Counted from the stretch's first letter, positions 57,368 to 64,000 are shown. The stretch is DNA of 64,000 nucleotides from an uncultured Gemmatimonadales bacterium (GCA_963695555.1 CAVOGR010000001.1:416001-480000); one strand, 5' to 3'. The notes: generated by a model from the letters alone, not told the origin. Made by a program: numbers and translations.

Positions 57368-57823
57368 CTACATGCCGAGGGTACGGGCCACCGCCGCCAA
57401 GCCCTCCCTGCCCAGCAGCTGGCGGGCCATGGGGAAGAGGACGTGGTCCTCGCGGTCGATGTGGGCGCGGAGCAGATCGACCAGCGCGTGGGCGATGACG
57501 GGGGCCTCAACGACCGGATGCTCGCCGTCCAAAGCCGTACTGAGCTTGTGCTCGAGGTCGCGGAGCTGTACGTGCTCGTCCGCGAACATGCCGGTCGGCG
57601 CATCATCTCCCAGCAGTGGGAACAGGGCCCGCTCTTCGTTGTCGTTGTGCTCGCGTACCGCGGTCGAGAGGAAGGTGTGCACTTGGCGCATCGTCTCGAG
57701 GTGCTCGGCGGGATCTTCCCCGTCCTCGAGCCCCTCGGCGGCCCGCTCGAGCCGCTCGAGCTCGCCGAGGGCGTGATGATGCTCGTCCTCGAACCGGCTG
57801 AGTGGATCTGATGTTGGCATCAT
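57368..57823 (-). CDS. hemerythrin (HHE) domain protein
   Basis: EH...HNDNEERALFP...EH...HIDREDHVLFP. Confidence 0.9.
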   Translation of the reverse strand: MMPTSDPLSRFEDEHHHALGELERLERAAEGLEDGEDPAEHLETMRQVHTFLSTAVREHNDNEERALFPLLGDDAPTGMFADEHVQLRDLEHKLSTALDGEHPVVEAPVIAHALVDLLRAHIDREDHVLFPMARQLLGREGLAAVARTLGM

Positions 57824-57852
57824 GGCGCGTCCCAGTTTGATGTCACCAGCTT

Positions 57853-57921
57853 CTACGCCCTACTCCCCGCTCCCTACCCCCTACACCTCCTACCTCCTAC
57901 CTCCTACCTCCTACTCCCTCC
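57853..57921. repeat. degenerate heptamer tandem array (CTACCTC/CTACTCC), about 9-10 units
   Basis: CTACCTC x3 exact at 57890-57910 plus variants; begins directly after the had-like stop codon. Confidence 0.8.
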
Positions 57922-58944
57922 CTATGGTGTCACCACCCACCGCACGCCCTTCCCCTGGCGCATGCGGTCGAAGCCCTCGTTGATATCCTCGAGGGGCAGG
58001 GTGCCGCTCACGATGGGGTCGAGGGTCAATCGGCCCGTCTCGACCAGCTTCATGATTTCAGGGTACTCCCCGCCGCCGCACCCGAGGCTGCCGACCACTT
58101 CCAACTCGTAGAACATGAGCTTTCCGGCGTTGAGGGGCACCTGCTCGTGGGCAAACCCGATGACACAGAGCCGGCCGCCCTTGCGGAGCAGGTTGAAGCC
58201 CAATGTGATCGTGGCAGGCTGGCCGATGGCCTCGAACGCGATGTCGACACCGCCGTCGGTCAGGGTGCGCACATGCTTGTCGACGCGCTCGACCTCATTC
58301 GAGTTGATAGTCTCGACCGCCCCCAGGCTGCGTGCCGTTTTCAGGTGTTCGTCGTTGATGTCGATGGCGATCACTCGCGCGCCCGCCACAGTGGCGCACT
58401 GGACCACGTTGAGCCCGAGGCCGCCACAGCCCACCACGGCCACGGTGTCCCCGACCCGAACCCGGGCCCGGTTCTTGACGGCGTGGTACGGGGTTGAGAG
58501 CGCGTCCGCGATGACGCAGGCACGTTCCAGGGGCAAAGAGGCTGGGACGGGCACCAGCACGGCCGCGGGCACGGTGACGAAGTCGGCGTAGGCTCCGTCG
58601 ACATGGTTGCCCAGCATGATCAAACGCTCGCACAAGTTTTCCCGGCCATTGCGGCAGTACTCGCACTGGCGGCAGGAATAGACCGACGGGATCAGCACCC
58701 GATCGCCGACCGCATGGGTCTCCACCCCCGCTCCGAGCTCCGCGATGACGCCGGCGGCTTCGTGGCCCAGCACGATCGGCGGCGGTTTGAAGGTCTTGAC
58801 CCCATGCTCGAGATAGTGGAGATCGGTGTGACAGAGGCCGCAGCCATGCACCTTGATGAGCACCTCGCCGGTGGTGGGCTTCGGCGTCGGCACCTCGGTC
58901 AGGTCGAGCGGCCGGTTCGGCCCGTGGTACACCGCGGCTTTCAT
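57922..58944 (-). CDS. had: Zn-dependent dehydrogenase, probable 6-hydroxycyclohex-1-ene-1-carbonyl-CoA dehydrogenase (Had/BamQ/BzdX-like)
   Basis: GCGLCHTDLHY...LGHE, CxxCxxC...C structural Zn site, GCGGLG; the family is clear, the specific call rests on operon context. Confidence 0.68.
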   Translation of the reverse strand: MKAAVYHGPNRPLDLTEVPTPKPTTGEVLIKVHGCGLCHTDLHYLEHGVKTFKPPPIVLGHEAAGVIAELGAGVETHAVGDRVLIPSVYSCRQCEYCRNGRENLCERLIMLGNHVDGAYADFVTVPAAVLVPVPASLPLERACVIADALSTPYHAVKNRARVRVGDTVAVVGCGGLGLNVVQCATVAGARVIAIDINDEHLKTARSLGAVETINSNEVERVDKHVRTLTDGGVDIAFEAIGQPATITLGFNLLRKGGRLCVIGFAHEQVPLNAGKLMFYELEVVGSLGCGGGEYPEIMKLVETGRLTLDPIVSGTLPLEDINEGFDRMRQGKGVRWVVTP

Positions 58945-59255
58945 GGTTCCTCCCCCGGTTGCTTCGTCCGGGTATAGATCGTCGTGAAGTTGAGCAGCAT
59001 GACAAGCTGGCAATCGTCACAGTCGGGTCCGACTTCTTCCTTCCTGAGCGGCTTGGCGCACACCTCGTAGCCCAGGCTTCGATAGAGCTCCATGGCCTCG
59101 TCCGCGCGTTGCTTGTCTGCGATGAACCGGCGCTCCCATCCGGCCGCGACGAGCTCCGGGTCGGCCGTCAAGGCGGAGTCGGCGAGGAGCCGCCGGGCCT
59201 CCGCTTCGACCACGAATCCCAGGCGATCGGCGAGGTCTGAGTCGTTGTCAGACAT
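58941..59255 (-). CDS. hypothetical 104-aa protein with a CxxC motif
   Basis: Overlaps both neighbours; [24 protein letters not shown]. Confidence 0.8.
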
Positions 59256-60087
59256 CGCGCGCCAAGCGCCCCACTTCGGGGGCGGAGGCCGTCTCCATCA
59301 ATTTCTCGACCCGCCGCTGCCCGAGGATCGCGGCGCCGAGAGCGGCGGTGAATTGGACCAAGTCGTTGCCCGGCACGTTGACCTCGGAGCCCAGCTGCTC
59401 GCGCACCACAGTCGACCATCCTCTCGAAGCGGAGGATGCCGCCGATCAGCGTGAACTCGGGCTCCATCCGAACCCGCTTCATCAACTGGACCGAGCGCCC
59501 GACCAGCGACACGATGGCGCCGTGCATGATGTCGGCCGGTGGCATGCCCTCGGACAGGTGGTTGATGACCTCCGACTCGGCGAACACGGCGCAGACGCCG
59601 GAGATCGGGACCGGCGTCTTCGAGGTGCTGACCAGCGGCCCGATCTCCTTCGTGCTGAACCCCATGTAGCGCGCAGTCTTCTCGAGGAACGCTCCGGTGC
59701 CCGCGGCGCACTTGTCGTTCAAGCGGAACGATTTGACCTTGCAGTCGTCGCTCGAGTCGGCTGGCCTTCATCGTCTGGCCGCCGACGTCGAGCATGGTGC
59801 GGGTGCCGGGGAAGAGGAAGGTCGCGCCGCGGGCCGCGGCCGTGAGGTCGGTGACCTGGACGTCGGCCGAAGTCCACTTGGTGGCGGCCGAATCCCGTCG
59901 ACACGATGTAGGCGATGCGGTCCAGCGGGACGCCGGCCTCGGCCGCGGCGTCGTGGAGTACCCGCTTCGCAACCTCCGCCAGCTTGAAACCGGTGGGCTC
60001 GATCGCCTGGCCCACGATGTGGCCAAGGGGCCCCAGGATCACGGCCTTGGTGTAGGTCGACCCGACGTCGATGCCGGCGGTATTCAT
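59248..60087 (-). CDS. bcrD: benzoyl-CoA reductase activase subunit, BcrD/BzdP-like (frameshifted)
   Basis: [48 protein letters not shown] across several frames. Confidence 0.75.
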
Positions 60088-60913
60088 TAGTCCGCTCCGT
60101 GGGTCAGGTTGGCAGGGGCGCGGCTGGCCAGGATCCGGTCGAGCGCGAAGAGGGCGGCGCCGATCGCGCCCATGAAGTGCGACTCCTCGCTGACGTTGAC
60201 CTTGAGGCCCAGGCGTTCGTTCGAGCGCCTCGATCATCGCCACGTTCCTAGCGACGCCGCCGGTGAAGGTGACTTCGTCCTCGATGCCCACCCGGCGCAA
60301 CAGCCCGACCGACCGCGACGCGATCGACTGATGCACGCCCGAGCAGGATGTCCTCGATCTTCTTGCCCTTGCCGAGCCAGGAGAGCACCTCCGACTCGGC
60401 GAACACCGTGCAGGTGGTGCTGATCTTGACGGGCCGCTCGCCTCGGAGCGCGGTTGGTCCCAAGTTGCTCGAGCGGGATGTCGAGGGCGCTCGAGGCCGC
60501 GCCGAGGAACCGCCCGGTGCCGGCCGCGCACTTGTCGTTCATGCAGAAGTCGACGATCTCGCCCGTGGGCGGCCACGCGGATCGCCTTGGTGTCCTGGCC
60601 GCCCATGTCGACCACGGTGCGGGTGTTCGGGAAACATGTGCACCGCGCCGCGCCCGTGGCAGCTGATCTCGGTCACCTGGGTGTTGCCGAAGGTGACCTT
60701 GTAGCGGCCGTAGCCGGTGCCGACGACGTACTCGACTTCCTCTTCGCGGAGTCTGCCGTCGGCGAGCGCCTCGCTCGAACGCGCACTGCGGCGGCGCGCA
60801 CCACGTTGGCGCCGGTATCGATGAGCGCGCGGCCGACGATCGCGCTTCGCCTCGTCGATGATGACCGCCTTGGTCTGGGTGGATCCGACGTCGACTCCTG
60901 CTGCGTAGGCCAT
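60087..60913 (-). CDS. bcrA: benzoyl-CoA reductase activase subunit, short BcrA/BzdQ-like (frameshifted)
   Basis: [63 protein letters not shown]. Confidence 0.72.
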
Positions 60914-62245
60914 GGTCTCCTCGGCTTCAGCGTCCGGCGTCGCCGGCTGTGCTGTCGTTTGCGGGTCGCCAGGCCCTCGAAGAAGGCGTCGACCCGGTTC
61001 TTGATCTGCGCTTCGGAGACCACCCGCCGGTCCATCATGTCGGACTCGATGAACAGGCTCGCGATATCGCGTTTGTCCGATCAGCGCCCGCCGGCTGTCG
61101 GCCAGCCCGGTCGAGACGGTGCGGCAGCTCTTGATCGGGTGGTAGACGACGCCGTCGGCGCCGAAGTCGTCGATCATGCCGTCGAGGATCGGCGGTCTGG
61201 TGGAACATGCTGTCCATCGCGTCGCGCACGCTGATCAGCACCCCCTCGGCGAGGCTCTCGAGCGGCCGCTCGAGGTCGTACTCGAAGCCCAGGTTCGAGC
61301 CGCCCGAGGCGAACCAGAGGTAGGTCGAGTTGACGAACGTGCCGCCCCATTCGGTGAACAGCTCGTTGAAGCGGCGGAAGATCGGGTAGCAGGGGACGCC
61401 GACGAAGAGCAGGCGGTACTGCTCGTCGGTCAGCGTGCCGATGCCGTGCGCGGCCTTGTACTCCATCTCCTCGACCAGATCCGTGAAGTAGGCGGCGCCC
61501 GCGCGGCGTGCCGCGGAAGCCGTTGGCGACGCCGAGGTAGATGGTGCCGTCGGTGAGCGCGTTGAAGAGCGACGGGCGGCTGCGGTTGAGCTCGAGCACC
61601 CGCTTCCAGCCGCGGCTCATGGTGTTGGCGTGAGCCATCGCCTCGCGCAGCCGGTCGATGTCGAAGTGCTTGCCGGTGACCTTCTCGCAGAGCGCGATGA
61701 GCTCCGCGATCTGCGCCTCGACGTAGCGGCGGTCGTTCTCGAAGTCGCCGTCGCCGGGCCAGGTCTGGCCGCCCGGCCGCGCGTGCCGGGCACGTCGAGG
61801 GTGAAGATCGGGATCTCGTACATGCGCTCCCAGATCTCGGCCCACTTGATGTAGGTGTTGCAGGCGTTGGTGTAGCACCGCGAGGGCCGGCTTCGGGATC
61901 CGCCCCATCGGGATGCTGCGCCGCCGCGCAGCTGCACGGCGACGTCGGCCTTGACGTAGCCGCAGATGTCGGGCGAGTAGCCGTAGTCCTCGGCCTCGTC
62001 CAGGTACTCGTGCGCGACGCGGCGCACGGCGGTCTGCAGCGAGTTGATCTCGGGAAAGACGATCGGAAGGTCGAAGGCCTGCGAGGAGCTCGGCCAGGCT
62101 GCCCATGACGAAGACGTAGGCGGCCGCCTCGGCCTCGCTCGGCGCGCCTGCGCCGAGTTCGGCGAACCACTGCCGGAAGAGCTGGGCGCCGTCGCGGTTG
62201 CCGCGTCCGACGAGTGCTGGGATGCTCGCTCTGCGTGTCGGCCAT
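60914..62245 (-). CDS. bcrB: benzoyl-CoA reductase subunit B-like (2-hydroxyacyl-CoA dehydratase family; frameshifted, 3' end approximate)
   Basis: [53 protein letters not shown] follow the order of T. aromatica BcrB motifs as I recall them. Confidence 0.75.
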
Positions 62246-62260
62246 GGAGTCTCGCCTGGC

Positions 62261-63449
62261 TCAGTGCGAAAAGGAGGTTCTCGACGAACGTCTCGAGCTG
62301 GATCTCGAGGTGGTCGAAGCTGGTCATGCTCTCTTCGAACTCGCTCACGAAGTAGGGAATGCCTTGCTGGTCCAGGGCGCTGGGTGTAGGCGACCTGCTC
62401 CTCGAGCCCGGGCTCGCACATCTTGGCGGCCATCACGATCGCCGCGTCGGCCCCGGACTCGGCGAATGCGCTCGAGCAGCATCTCGCTCCTTGGGCTTGC
62501 GCAGGTCGTGCTGCACCGGGCTGTAGGACGATCGCTCGAGGTACGCCTCGGCGAGGTTGTCGAGCGGGTCGCCGTCGACCGAGCACGTCCTCGACGATCC
62601 AGCGCAGGCCGATCAGCAGGTCGTCGTCGACGACGTAGCAGGAGCGCCCGATCATGCGCATCAGGTCGAGCGGCGGTTGCTCGCAGAAGCCGCCCTCGAA
62701 GACGCACTCGGATCTTGTCTTGGCGCTTGGCTGCCGGCGCCGCGAGCATGGGGCAGGACTGTCCGGAGCAGCTCGTTGTGCTCTTCGCGCGGAACGAGGC
62801 CGCCGACCGCGACGAGGGCGTACGCGTCGTCCGCCGACACGAGCCACGGGGATCTCGCGCTTGAGGCGATAGAGCTCGCCGCAGCAGCGCGCGGTTCTCG
62901 TTGAAGACCGCGATCGAGCGCGCGGAGCGCGTCGTCGGTGACCGGCCGGCCCGCCACGGCCTCGATCGCGTCCGCGCAGGCGGCGTACTCGCCGCGCAGG
63001 TACTCGGCGGCGTGTGCCGAGTTGGCGTTCTGCGGCAGGTAGAGAATCTGGCAGGGGTAGGGGAAGTTCCGTCCCCAGATCGCGCGCCAGGTTGCGGGCC
63101 GCGTCGCAGATCGGATGGGTGACGAACATGTCGAGCTCGACCCGCTCGCTGAGCGACCAGCTCGAGCGAGGTCTTGAGGATCGAGCAGAGGTAGGAGCCG
63201 AAGCGCGAGTCGGCCTGCGTCGCCTCGATCGGGGCGCCACGCACCTTGAAGGGCAGCATCCCGGCGGCGTGCGCGATCTCCTCGGGGAAGTAGACCTGGA
63301 AGTGCCCGAGAACCTTGCCGCCGCCGCCGCGCCAGCGCCTGACGGTGGGGAAGTCGGTGTCCTCCACCAGCTCGCGGCACTGGTAGAGCAGCTCGTCCGA
63401 GCGGCGTGTCGCGCCACTCGGGAAAGATGACGGCAGGCCGTGTGCTCAT
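62261..63449 (-). CDS. bcrC: benzoyl-CoA reductase subunit C-like (frameshifted)
   Basis: [63 protein letters not shown] match BcrC motifs as I recall them. Confidence 0.78.
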
Positions 63450-64000
63450 TGGTGGCTCCAAACCGGAGTGCGCTTTTCCTGGAAGGCCGTGAGCCCCTCC
63501 ACGGCGTCTCGCGTTGCCATCAGCTCATCCATGTAGAGCTGGCCGACGGCATCGAGCGTCGCGTGGCGGTTTCGCTGGAGCGCCCGTTTGGCGAGTCGGA
63601 GCGCTGCGCCGCTGTGCCGGGCAATACGCTCGGCGAGGGCCGTCGCCTCGGCTGCGAGCCGGTCGTCCGGCACCACCCGCTGTACCAGCCCGATGGCATG
63701 AGCGTGCGCGGCCGAGACCGGATCGCCGGTGAAGACGATCTCCGCTGCGGCGCCGTACGGACAGCGCTCCGGGAGGATGACGCAGGCGGCCGGGGGCAGC
63801 ACACCCAACATGATTTCCGGCTGGCCGAAGACGGTGCTCTCCCCGGCGATGACGATGTCGGCGGCCTGCACCAGCTCGAAGCCGCCACCCAGGCAGCGTC
63901 CGTGCACCACGGCTACCACGGGCACGGGGCAGGCCTCGATCGCGGCGACGGTCTCGAGGAATTCGGGGATCATGTCGCGGAAGTCGGGCGGCAGGTGCTC
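63446..64000 (-). CDS. dch: enoyl-CoA hydratase, probable cyclohexa-1,5-dienecarbonyl-CoA hydratase (5' end beyond the window)
   Basis: GRCLGGGFEL, FGQPEIMLGVLPP, LYMDELMATRDAVEGL; ATGA coupling to bcrC. Confidence 0.68.
   Translation of the reverse strand, partial: EHLPPDFRDMIPEFLETVAAIEACPVPVVAVVHGRCLGGGFELVQAADIVIAGESTVFGQPEIMLGVLPPAACVILPERCPYGAAAEIVFTGDPVSAAHAHAIGLVQRVVPDDRLAAEATALAERIARHSGAALRLAKRALQRNRHATLDAVGQLYMDELMATRDAVEGLTAFQEKRTPVWSHQ

Follow-up and report, generated by a model that had tools for sequence, protein, structure and literature searches.

The closest described counterpart of the locus treated here is the mbd cluster of Azoarcus sp. CIB, which, according to an excerpt of PMC4424350, comprises MbdMNOPQWXYZ and the TetR-family repressor MbdR, which answers to 3-methylbenzoyl-CoA. 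The solved 3-methylbenzoyl-CoA reductase MbdONQP is represented by the PDB entries 9g87, 9gai, 9gal and 9gba. Two further systems offer themselves for comparison, the Thauera-type reductases BcrCBAD/BadDEFG (TIGR02259-TIGR02263) and the Azoarcus-type BzdNOPQ (PDB 8s02), and beside these the 2-hydroxyacyl-CoA dehydratases (HadBC/HadI, 3o3m and 4eht; HgdC, 1hux). We analyzed a stretch of 64,000 nucleotides (nt) (G000:C1:416001-480000, in the following the window) from the genome of an uncultured Gemmatimonadales bacterium (G000; 3.57 Mb in 14 contigs, 65% G+C, 87.1% estimated completeness). Positions 57368 to 64000 of this window carry a putative benzoyl-CoA reductase operon. The contig continues past 64000, and the next 12 kb beyond the window were also examined. 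Judged by its sequence, the operon is of the MBR type of class I (ATP-dependent) benzoyl-CoA reductases and not a dehydratase. Taken as a whole, it is likely that the operon would encode such an enzyme, which would spend ATP on the reduction of an aryl-CoA ring, and that the 51 small insertions and deletions (indels) which break its reductase genes are consensus errors.

Two genomes of the same genus, G002 and G004, were used as references. At the same place as in G000, G002 possesses four intact genes (395, 433, 272 and 282 amino acids, aa), which served as proxies in the family tests and are 90-94.5% identical to the indel-corrected genes of G000. Two genes of HGD-D-family catalytic subunits and two different genes of BcrAD-family ATPases thus lie side by side, as fragments in G000 and intact in G002. 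In phmmer searches of PDB the proxies matched the four subunits of 3-methylbenzoyl-CoA reductase one to one and near full length, with about 60% identity. These were the mbdN-like catalytic subunit (62260..63461; gamma, BcrC-like; 532 bits over the full length of MbdN chain 9g87_B), the mbdO-like catalytic subunit (60926..62245; beta, BcrB-like; 521.3 bits over the full length of MbdO chain 9g87_A), the mbdQ-like ATPase (60087..60913; alpha; 427 bits to MbdQ chain 9gai_D) and the mbdP-like ATPase (59248..60099; delta; 305.4 bits to MbdP chain 9gai_C); like the other genes of the cluster inside the window they are encoded on the minus strand. In the first block of the MbdO alignment, 62 of 102 positions are identical (~61%). 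The next PDB chains for the catalytic proxies were HadB/C (97-111 bits) and BzdO/N (95-101 bits), and because the Mbd chains score far above both, the operon is to be placed with the MBR type and not with the dehydratases. The first-pass annotation had likewise read a class I benzoyl-CoA reductase operon here, and this assignment stands.

With the Thauera-type reductases the operon shares the architecture, and they form the second-best family (BcrC 268.6 bits, BcrB 202.4 bits), but these scores lie well below the equivalog cut-offs of 421.15 and 486.55, and the ATPase proxies, with a length of just 272 and 282 aa, align with no more than positions 230-432 of the BcrA model, which has 432 positions. 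BzdNOPQ has the superfamily and the four-subunit logic in common with it, but was matched with merely 95.5 bits (BzdO) and 100.7 bits (BzdN). Resemblance to the mbd cluster extends beyond the four subunits, as genes for a hydratase, a dehydrogenase and a hydrolase occur in both operons and a TetR-family regulator adjoins them (PMC4424350, excerpt). The two differ in the host phylum, in the lack of a ferredoxin (mbdM) or CoA ligase gene in the cluster of G000, in its extra genes for a protein termed X here, a short-chain dehydrogenase/reductase (SDR) and a hemerythrin, and in the frames, which are broken in the G000 assembly. 

The 2-hydroxyacyl-CoA dehydratases also combine an HGD-D pair with a BcrAD-type ATPase. 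The ATPase proxies reach 150-222 bits to dehydratase activators, and the MbdQ-like one passes the cut-off of TIGR00241, acyl-CoA dehydratase activase (268.6 bits; cut-off 125.4). The operon might encode a dehydratase, or a different radical enzyme from the HGD-D/BcrAD superfamily, in place of a ring reductase. Pfam gives superfamily domains only, and the HadB/C and double-cubane models match too. Nevertheless, this explanation is extremely improbable. The catalytic proxies obtained 521-532 bits with the Mbd chains versus 97-111 bits with HadB/C. Dehydratases of this kind generally have one activator, and here two distinct ATPase genes pair with MbdQ and MbdP. Furthermore, the neighboring genes resemble those of a ring pathway: the best NCBIfam match of each pathway gene, tested with the G002 proxies, was a dearomatization family (BcrC, BcrB, had, dch and oah). 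The gene order recurs in relatives.

In the sequence as given, all four reductase genes lack an open frame and no whole subunit is encoded; in the stop-to-stop translation, protein-like stretches jump among all three frames. PF06050 occurs in the whole of G000 at this locus alone, as 6 fragments, and PF01869 is present there as 5 fragments, with 3 further matches elsewhere in the genome that are whole. The first-pass annotation had reported a tightly coupled set of a dch-like gene, bcrC, bcrB, two activases, an open reading frame (ORF) with a CxxC motif and a had-like gene. All of these are present and tightly joined, but the four reductase genes among them are no intact ORFs, and this breakage of the core genes had been left unweighed.

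In comparison to G002, 45 insertion events (41 of them of 1 bp) and 6 deletions were found between 59410 and 63399, i.e. 51 indels in 4.2 kb versus 9 in 10.4 kb of flanking sequence. They are distributed over the mbdN-like gene (16 insertions and 3 deletions), the mbdO-like gene (17 and 3), the mbdQ-like gene (8 and 0) and the mbdP-like gene (3 and 0), with one more insertion between the first two; the six neighboring genes showed zero indels. The excess was repeated against eight further relatives, including G004, which covers 3480 nt and against which 44 insertion events were counted. All contigs were additionally followed with a six-frame codon-usage Viterbi tracker, which counted same-strand frame switches in 3525 windows of 4 kb. 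The locus ranked first of the 3525 with 21 switches, the best value elsewhere being 13, the 99th percentile 8 and the median 2. The damage at the locus is therefore not genome-wide noise.

It is very probable that the indels breaking the four genes are errors of the assembly or its consensus. After their removal by projection on G002 no stop codons remained, the proteins were 90-94.5% identical to those of G002, and the mismatches fell mainly on codon position 3. The dN/dS values of the four corrected genes were 0.157, 0.160, 0.074 and 0.145 (the last for the mbdP-like gene), compared to 0.053-0.222 for six intact neighbors. Positions that are invariant among relatives were scored in the same way, and 178 of 179 were kept in the MbdN-like protein, 193 of 195 in the MbdO-like protein and 160 of 161 and 166 of 168 in the two ATPases; two control genes kept 181 of 182 and 179 of 179. 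The retention of the cysteine motifs, taken as Fe-S motifs in the first-pass annotation, is thus confirmed for the indel-corrected genes. Among the positions kept are all six cysteines that are invariant in the MbdN-like alignment (A1), some of which may bind clusters. About 50 frame-breaking events without relaxed selection form a pattern unlike decay.

The competing explanation is that the four genes are truly inactivated in this strain and form a fresh pseudogene cluster in a lineage no longer needing ring reduction. Such a loss would fit the absence of any open frame in the given sequence and the restriction of the breaks to four genes which a cell would lose together. It would require, however, about 50 independent indels in genes whose dN/dS is 0.07-0.16, which have no stops and which keep nearly all invariant residues. 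Moreover, decay of bacterial genes is usually biased towards deletions, and the bias observed here (45 insertions to 6 deletions) is the opposite. Among 400 other Gemmatimonadota genomes, 63 had an MbdN-like match at E<=1e-120, and all 64 places were uninterrupted, so that none of the 63 relatives is broken; G000 itself gave no match at that threshold.

Environmental contigs that are nearly identical to the locus also lack the extra bases. This comparison comprised assembled contigs of 4 metagenomes from 4 studies and gives no read-level support. At 12 of the 12 listed indel places contigs omit one letter, each at or next to a base that G000 has in addition to G002. In run X1 the contigs were identical to the flanks (58098-58383 and 63722-63986), yet without the extra base at 63399. 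Furthermore, a second accumulation of indels was detected in an unrelated operon on the same contig (G000:C1:835900-842300; L131 2919-9323), 360 kb from the reductase locus. In comparison to G004 it contains 58 insertions and 77 deletions in 5.6 kb, versus 1 insertion and 4 deletions in its flanks; it is dominated by deletions, unlike the reductase locus. Local damage of this kind in two unrelated operons points to the assembly and not to biology.

Some observations speak against an artefact and in part for a true inactivation. The artefact was deduced and not seen directly in raw reads of the source sample, as no sequencing run shared more than 0.17 of words. For 4 of the 12 listed places the omission was seen in only part of the contig depth, and 74 further indel rows exist beyond those listed. 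The error pattern is also odd, as it is biased towards insertions and only 5 of the 41 one-base insertions copy a neighboring base, so that homopolymer slippage is not the cause. Finally, dS to G002 is about twice as high inside the four genes (0.23-0.41) as in the flanks (0.14-0.17). In view of this raised dS, the allele of a different strain may be the source of the damaged patch. A model in which both alleles of single-nucleotide polymorphisms were kept as insertions was tried and found unsupported, since 3 of the 45 insertions adjoin a mismatch and 8.5 would be expected by chance; this, too, leaves the artefact without that explanation. With all of this considered, an inactivation of the genes remains improbable, and consensus errors are preferred.

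Further places of G000 showed unusual frame behavior. Frame-switch outliers were found at C3:52-55 kb, at C5:366-372 kb, at C5:436-442 kb, which is without a counterpart in G002, and at C1:632-638 kb, which matches G002 with 87% over nearly its whole length and part of which has an additional match on another contig of G002; our guess is that the latter is a run of small genes. The codon-usage tracker followed no frame in 41 blocks, each 1.2 kb or longer and together amounting to 98.7 kb, among them blocks at contig ends (C7 853533-859215, C8 44757-53009, C10 31614-36966 and both ends of C12). These may be further patches of low quality, RNA genes or foreign DNA.

Across window and adjoining sequence the genes are arranged as TetR, oah-like, SDR, dch-like, mbdN, mbdO, mbdQ, mbdP, X, had-like and hemerythrin. 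The junctions between the genes are tight, with overlaps or gaps of 4-16 nt. Within the window, Pfam recognized the hemerythrin, the Zn-dependent alcohol dehydrogenase, three BcrAD_BadFG fragments, one HGD-D fragment and an enoyl-CoA hydratase crossing the window end. The latter is the dch-like gene (63446..64000, running to 64201 beyond the window, minus strand; 251 aa, Pfam ECH_1). Beyond its remainder follow the SDR (252 aa), a 354-aa crotonase, the TetR regulator and then a DsbA-like protein, an M61 peptidase and other unrelated genes. The crotonase gene (64890-65954) has TIGR03200 as its best NCBIfam match and is thus oah-like; the first-pass annotation had considered an oah gene possible past 64000. 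A ferredoxin and a CoA ligase, which it had considered possible there as well, are missing from the next 12 kb. The TetR protein was tried as an orthologue of MbdR and rejected, as 4uds appeared only at rank 21 with 39.5 bits, the best match being 3vpr, a Thermus TetR-family entry (111.5 bits).

The had-like Zn-dependent dehydrogenase (57922..58944, within an ORF from 57922 to 59013, minus strand; Pfam ADH_N and ADH_zinc_N) is intact, 98.6% identical to its counterpart in G002 and has a dN/dS of 0.053. Its translation probably begins with the ATG at 58944, which forms an ATGA overlap with the stop codon of X. X (58941..59255, minus strand) is a conserved protein of 104 aa, and the last gene of the cluster (57368..57823, minus strand) encodes a hemerythrin-domain protein of 151 aa (PF01814, E 7.9e-15), which shares 89% identity with its positional counterpart in G002. 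The spacer between had and hemerythrin contains a purine-rich (GGAGGTA)n heptamer repeat (57860..57915, minus strand), read from the sequence and 23 nt longer in G000 than in G002. In one metagenome, the bin with this repeat had a very high summed contig depth of 2555, so that the motif is probably common elsewhere. On this flank, genes for an M28 peptidase and a TonB-dependent receptor are intact according to Pfam.

No mobility genes were found among the ORFs scanned in the window and the next 12 kb, in agreement with the first-pass annotation. G000 is colinear with G002 across 14,957 nt at 92.7% identity, and the contig is therefore not chimeric at the locus. The Gemmatimonadota-like appearance of the host is borne out as well, as the syntenic same-genus genome G002 is titled uncultured Gemmatimonadales bacterium.

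From what is generally held for class I reductases, a course of the reaction can be proposed. Reduced ferredoxin would load a [4Fe-4S] cluster between the MbdQ and MbdP ATPases, and ATP hydrolysis would push electrons of low potential to the MbdN/O module, where benzoyl-CoA, or an analogue carrying a substituent, would be converted into a cyclic dienoyl-CoA. Opening of the ring would then be the task of the dch-like hydratase, had-like dehydrogenase and oah-like hydrolase. As long as no acyl-CoA is bound, the TetR protein would likely keep the operon repressed.

A number of results do not fit easily with such a function. With the G002 proxies, all NCBIfam equivalog cut-offs were missed: BcrC TIGR02263 (268.6 bits; cut-off 421.15), BcrB TIGR02260 (202.4; 486.55), had TIGR03201 dearomat_had (240.9; 338.65), dch TIGR03189 dienoyl_CoA_hyt (187.1; 292.5), oah TIGR03200 dearomat_oah (214.6; 464.45) and the Thauera-type ATPases TIGR02259 (219.1; 578; MbdQ-like) and TIGR02261 (122.1; 312.85; MbdP-like). 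A literature search yielded no measured activity for any member outside the Pseudomonadota. The ORF and Pfam scan revealed neither a ferredoxin nor a CoA ligase gene in the cluster or within 12 kb beyond the window, a ferredoxin-targeted search elsewhere in G000 not having been made. The sole gene of the benzoate-CoA ligase family in G000 (on C7; 480.6 bits, cut-off 375.25) adjoins a gene for salicylyl-CoA 5-hydroxylase/oxidoreductase (1140 bits, cut-off 1078). Concerning respiration, G000, in which six marker families were tried at 87% completeness, yielded no narG, clade II nosZ, ccoN/cbb3 or cytochrome bd, and narG and nirK were above the cut-off in none of the 5 genomes of the genus. The facultative lifestyle that the first-pass annotation had deduced from genes for cytochrome oxidase assembly thus finds no support in the markers tried.

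The position of the ligase gene beside the salicylyl-CoA 5-hydroxylase suggests an aerobic aryl-CoA route. The respective cluster (G000:C7:27012-36295, L130) contains, in addition to these two, genes for an acyl-CoA dehydrogenase, a crotonase and an SDR, and from its gene content looks like a route of the salicylate to gentisyl-CoA type. A gene for a 2-oxoacid:acceptor oxidoreductase (OAFO; 634.9 bits, cut-off 482.75) is located in G000 away from the reductase cluster.

An alternative explanation is that the operon encodes a real MBR-type reductase working on another substrate or in another setting than the textbook anaerobic degradation of benzoate. It might act on a substituted aryl-CoA or on another aryl- or alicyclic-CoA, in oxygen-respiring bacteria during transient anoxia, with X and the hemerythrin as accessory redox or oxygen-guard parts. 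Beside the missed cut-offs and the lack of a ferredoxin gene in the cluster, the extra SDR gene, the position of X behind mbdP in 55 of 61 loci and the recurrence of hemerythrin genes near the cluster are in favor of this, as is the finding that the only respiration matches in G000 were two weak ones of the ccoN family (36-43 bits) and that narG, nosZ-II, cbb3 and cytochrome bd did not appear. The dch-, had- and oah-like genes, however, fit the ordinary benzoyl-CoA route, and MBR enzymes reportedly take benzoyl-CoA as well; in addition, only the six marker families were tried in a genome that is 87% complete. We regard such a different substrate or setting as rather unlikely. A more far-reaching proposal, for which we see only a slim chance, is that a Birch-type ring reductase driven by ATP operates in Gemmatimonadales that have no recognizable respiration of the anaerobic or high-affinity kind. 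In this system the hemerythrin and X, as a dedicated CxxC protein, would be electron-donor or oxygen-guard parts, and X would be a fifth, hitherto unseen component of MBR-type reductases.

Gene X follows the mbdP-like gene in 55 of the 61 related loci with room for it. In an alignment of 33 members (A2) the residues G39, W40, R43, E53, L57, Y58, G62, C79, C82, Y94, T95 and R96 are invariant, C79 and C82 forming the CxxC motif; the G000 protein has a third cysteine, which lacks conservation. No Pfam family was found for these 33 members. There are 877 relatives, and among the best 120 listed all source names are 'hypothetical protein'. The structural model (pLDDT, i.e. predicted local distance difference test, 84) has a beta-alpha-beta-alpha-beta core, and no fold match was obtained with it: Foldseek gave nothing at E<=0.001, the VIA wide search a best Z of 4.4 and the protein atlas unnamed clusters only. 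We can only guess at its function, which might be that of an electron carrier, of a thiol redox partner or of an assembly factor.

Hemerythrin matches occurred near 12 of 80 related loci. In a metagenome-assembled genome (MAG) of a Caldilineaceae bacterium, X and a hemerythrin domain are joined in one frame of 280 aa (L095:10218-11060). Longer or fused forms of X were otherwise not found at E<=1e-5, which is weak evidence; the joined frame thus stands alone and may be either a true fusion or the result of a lost stop codon. A complex prediction of the hemerythrin (A3) with X (A2) gave a score of 0.20 and a mark of 0.32, values that say nothing either way.

The operon is of a known type that is common in Gemmatimonadota and occurs also in MAGs of Acidobacteriota and Chloroflexota. 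An alignment scan for MbdN-like sequences with one genome per species returned at least 600 stretches. Confirmation was obtained for 574 of those listed, and identities among the best 80 of the at least 600 ranged from 71 to 100%. Among the matches listed, the holders were Gemmatimonadota, Acidobacteriota, Chloroflexota and one MAG of the Acidimicrobiia. Within the close relatives, HGD-D pairs were present in 20 of 41 genomes, G000 counted. The first-pass annotation had regarded the host as unexpected. This cannot be upheld, as a full-length MbdN-like gene is present in 63 of the 400 other Gemmatimonadota genomes, and metagenome surveys, as far as excerpts of them go, already list class I benzoyl-CoA reductase genes in MAGs of this phylum. 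In an excerpt of a mangrove study, 1 of 49 MAGs tied to the mineralization of lignin monomer derivatives belongs to the Gemmatimonadota, and the phylum is called 'rarely reported' for this function. A tested anaerobic degrader of aromatic compounds from the Gemmatimonadota was not found in a literature search, and we found none for the Acidobacteriota and Chloroflexota with such operons either.

Trees of MbdN and MbdO, calculated for 71 loci, show a clustering by phylum. All 16 Acidobacteriota fall on one side of a branch with support of 90 and 92 and make up that side, and the 9 Chloroflexota stand beside them, among the 43 Gemmatimonadota, with the root being unsure. An approximately unbiased test of a clade of Acidobacteriota and Chloroflexota gave p 0.001, but it was mis-specified, as the unlabelled locus L108, which lies inside the clade, had been left out, and is uninformative. 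One operon labelled as Actinomycetota, that of the Acidimicrobiia MAG (L111), was placed among the Gemmatimonadota rows and has the complete gene order of the Gemmatimonadota type; its placement and gene order point to a transfer or to a mis-binned contig. Some relatives, namely G032 (two places, on C1 and C3), G027 and G008, carry the reductase operon twice or have an additional, distant HGD-D pair (~34% identical).

For the annotation of such genomes this locus gives reason for caution, as automatic gene calling would yield pseudogenes, or no benzoyl-CoA reductase at all, for an organism that very likely has a working operon. At least one more damaged patch is present on the same contig, which fits the low completeness of 87% for an assembly of 14 contigs. 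For the family, the locus adds one case to the MBR-type class I operons that are common in uncultured Gemmatimonadota (63 of the 400 sampled) and occur also in Acidobacteriota and Chloroflexota. Two points deserve more work, namely the conserved CxxC protein X and the question of how an oxygen-sensitive enzyme fits with genomes in which no markers of anaerobic respiration were found. If Gemmatimonadales of this kind indeed ran the reductase with X and the hemerythrin as its donor or guard parts, dearomatization by an oxygen-labile enzyme would work in soils and sediments with alternating oxic and anoxic conditions.

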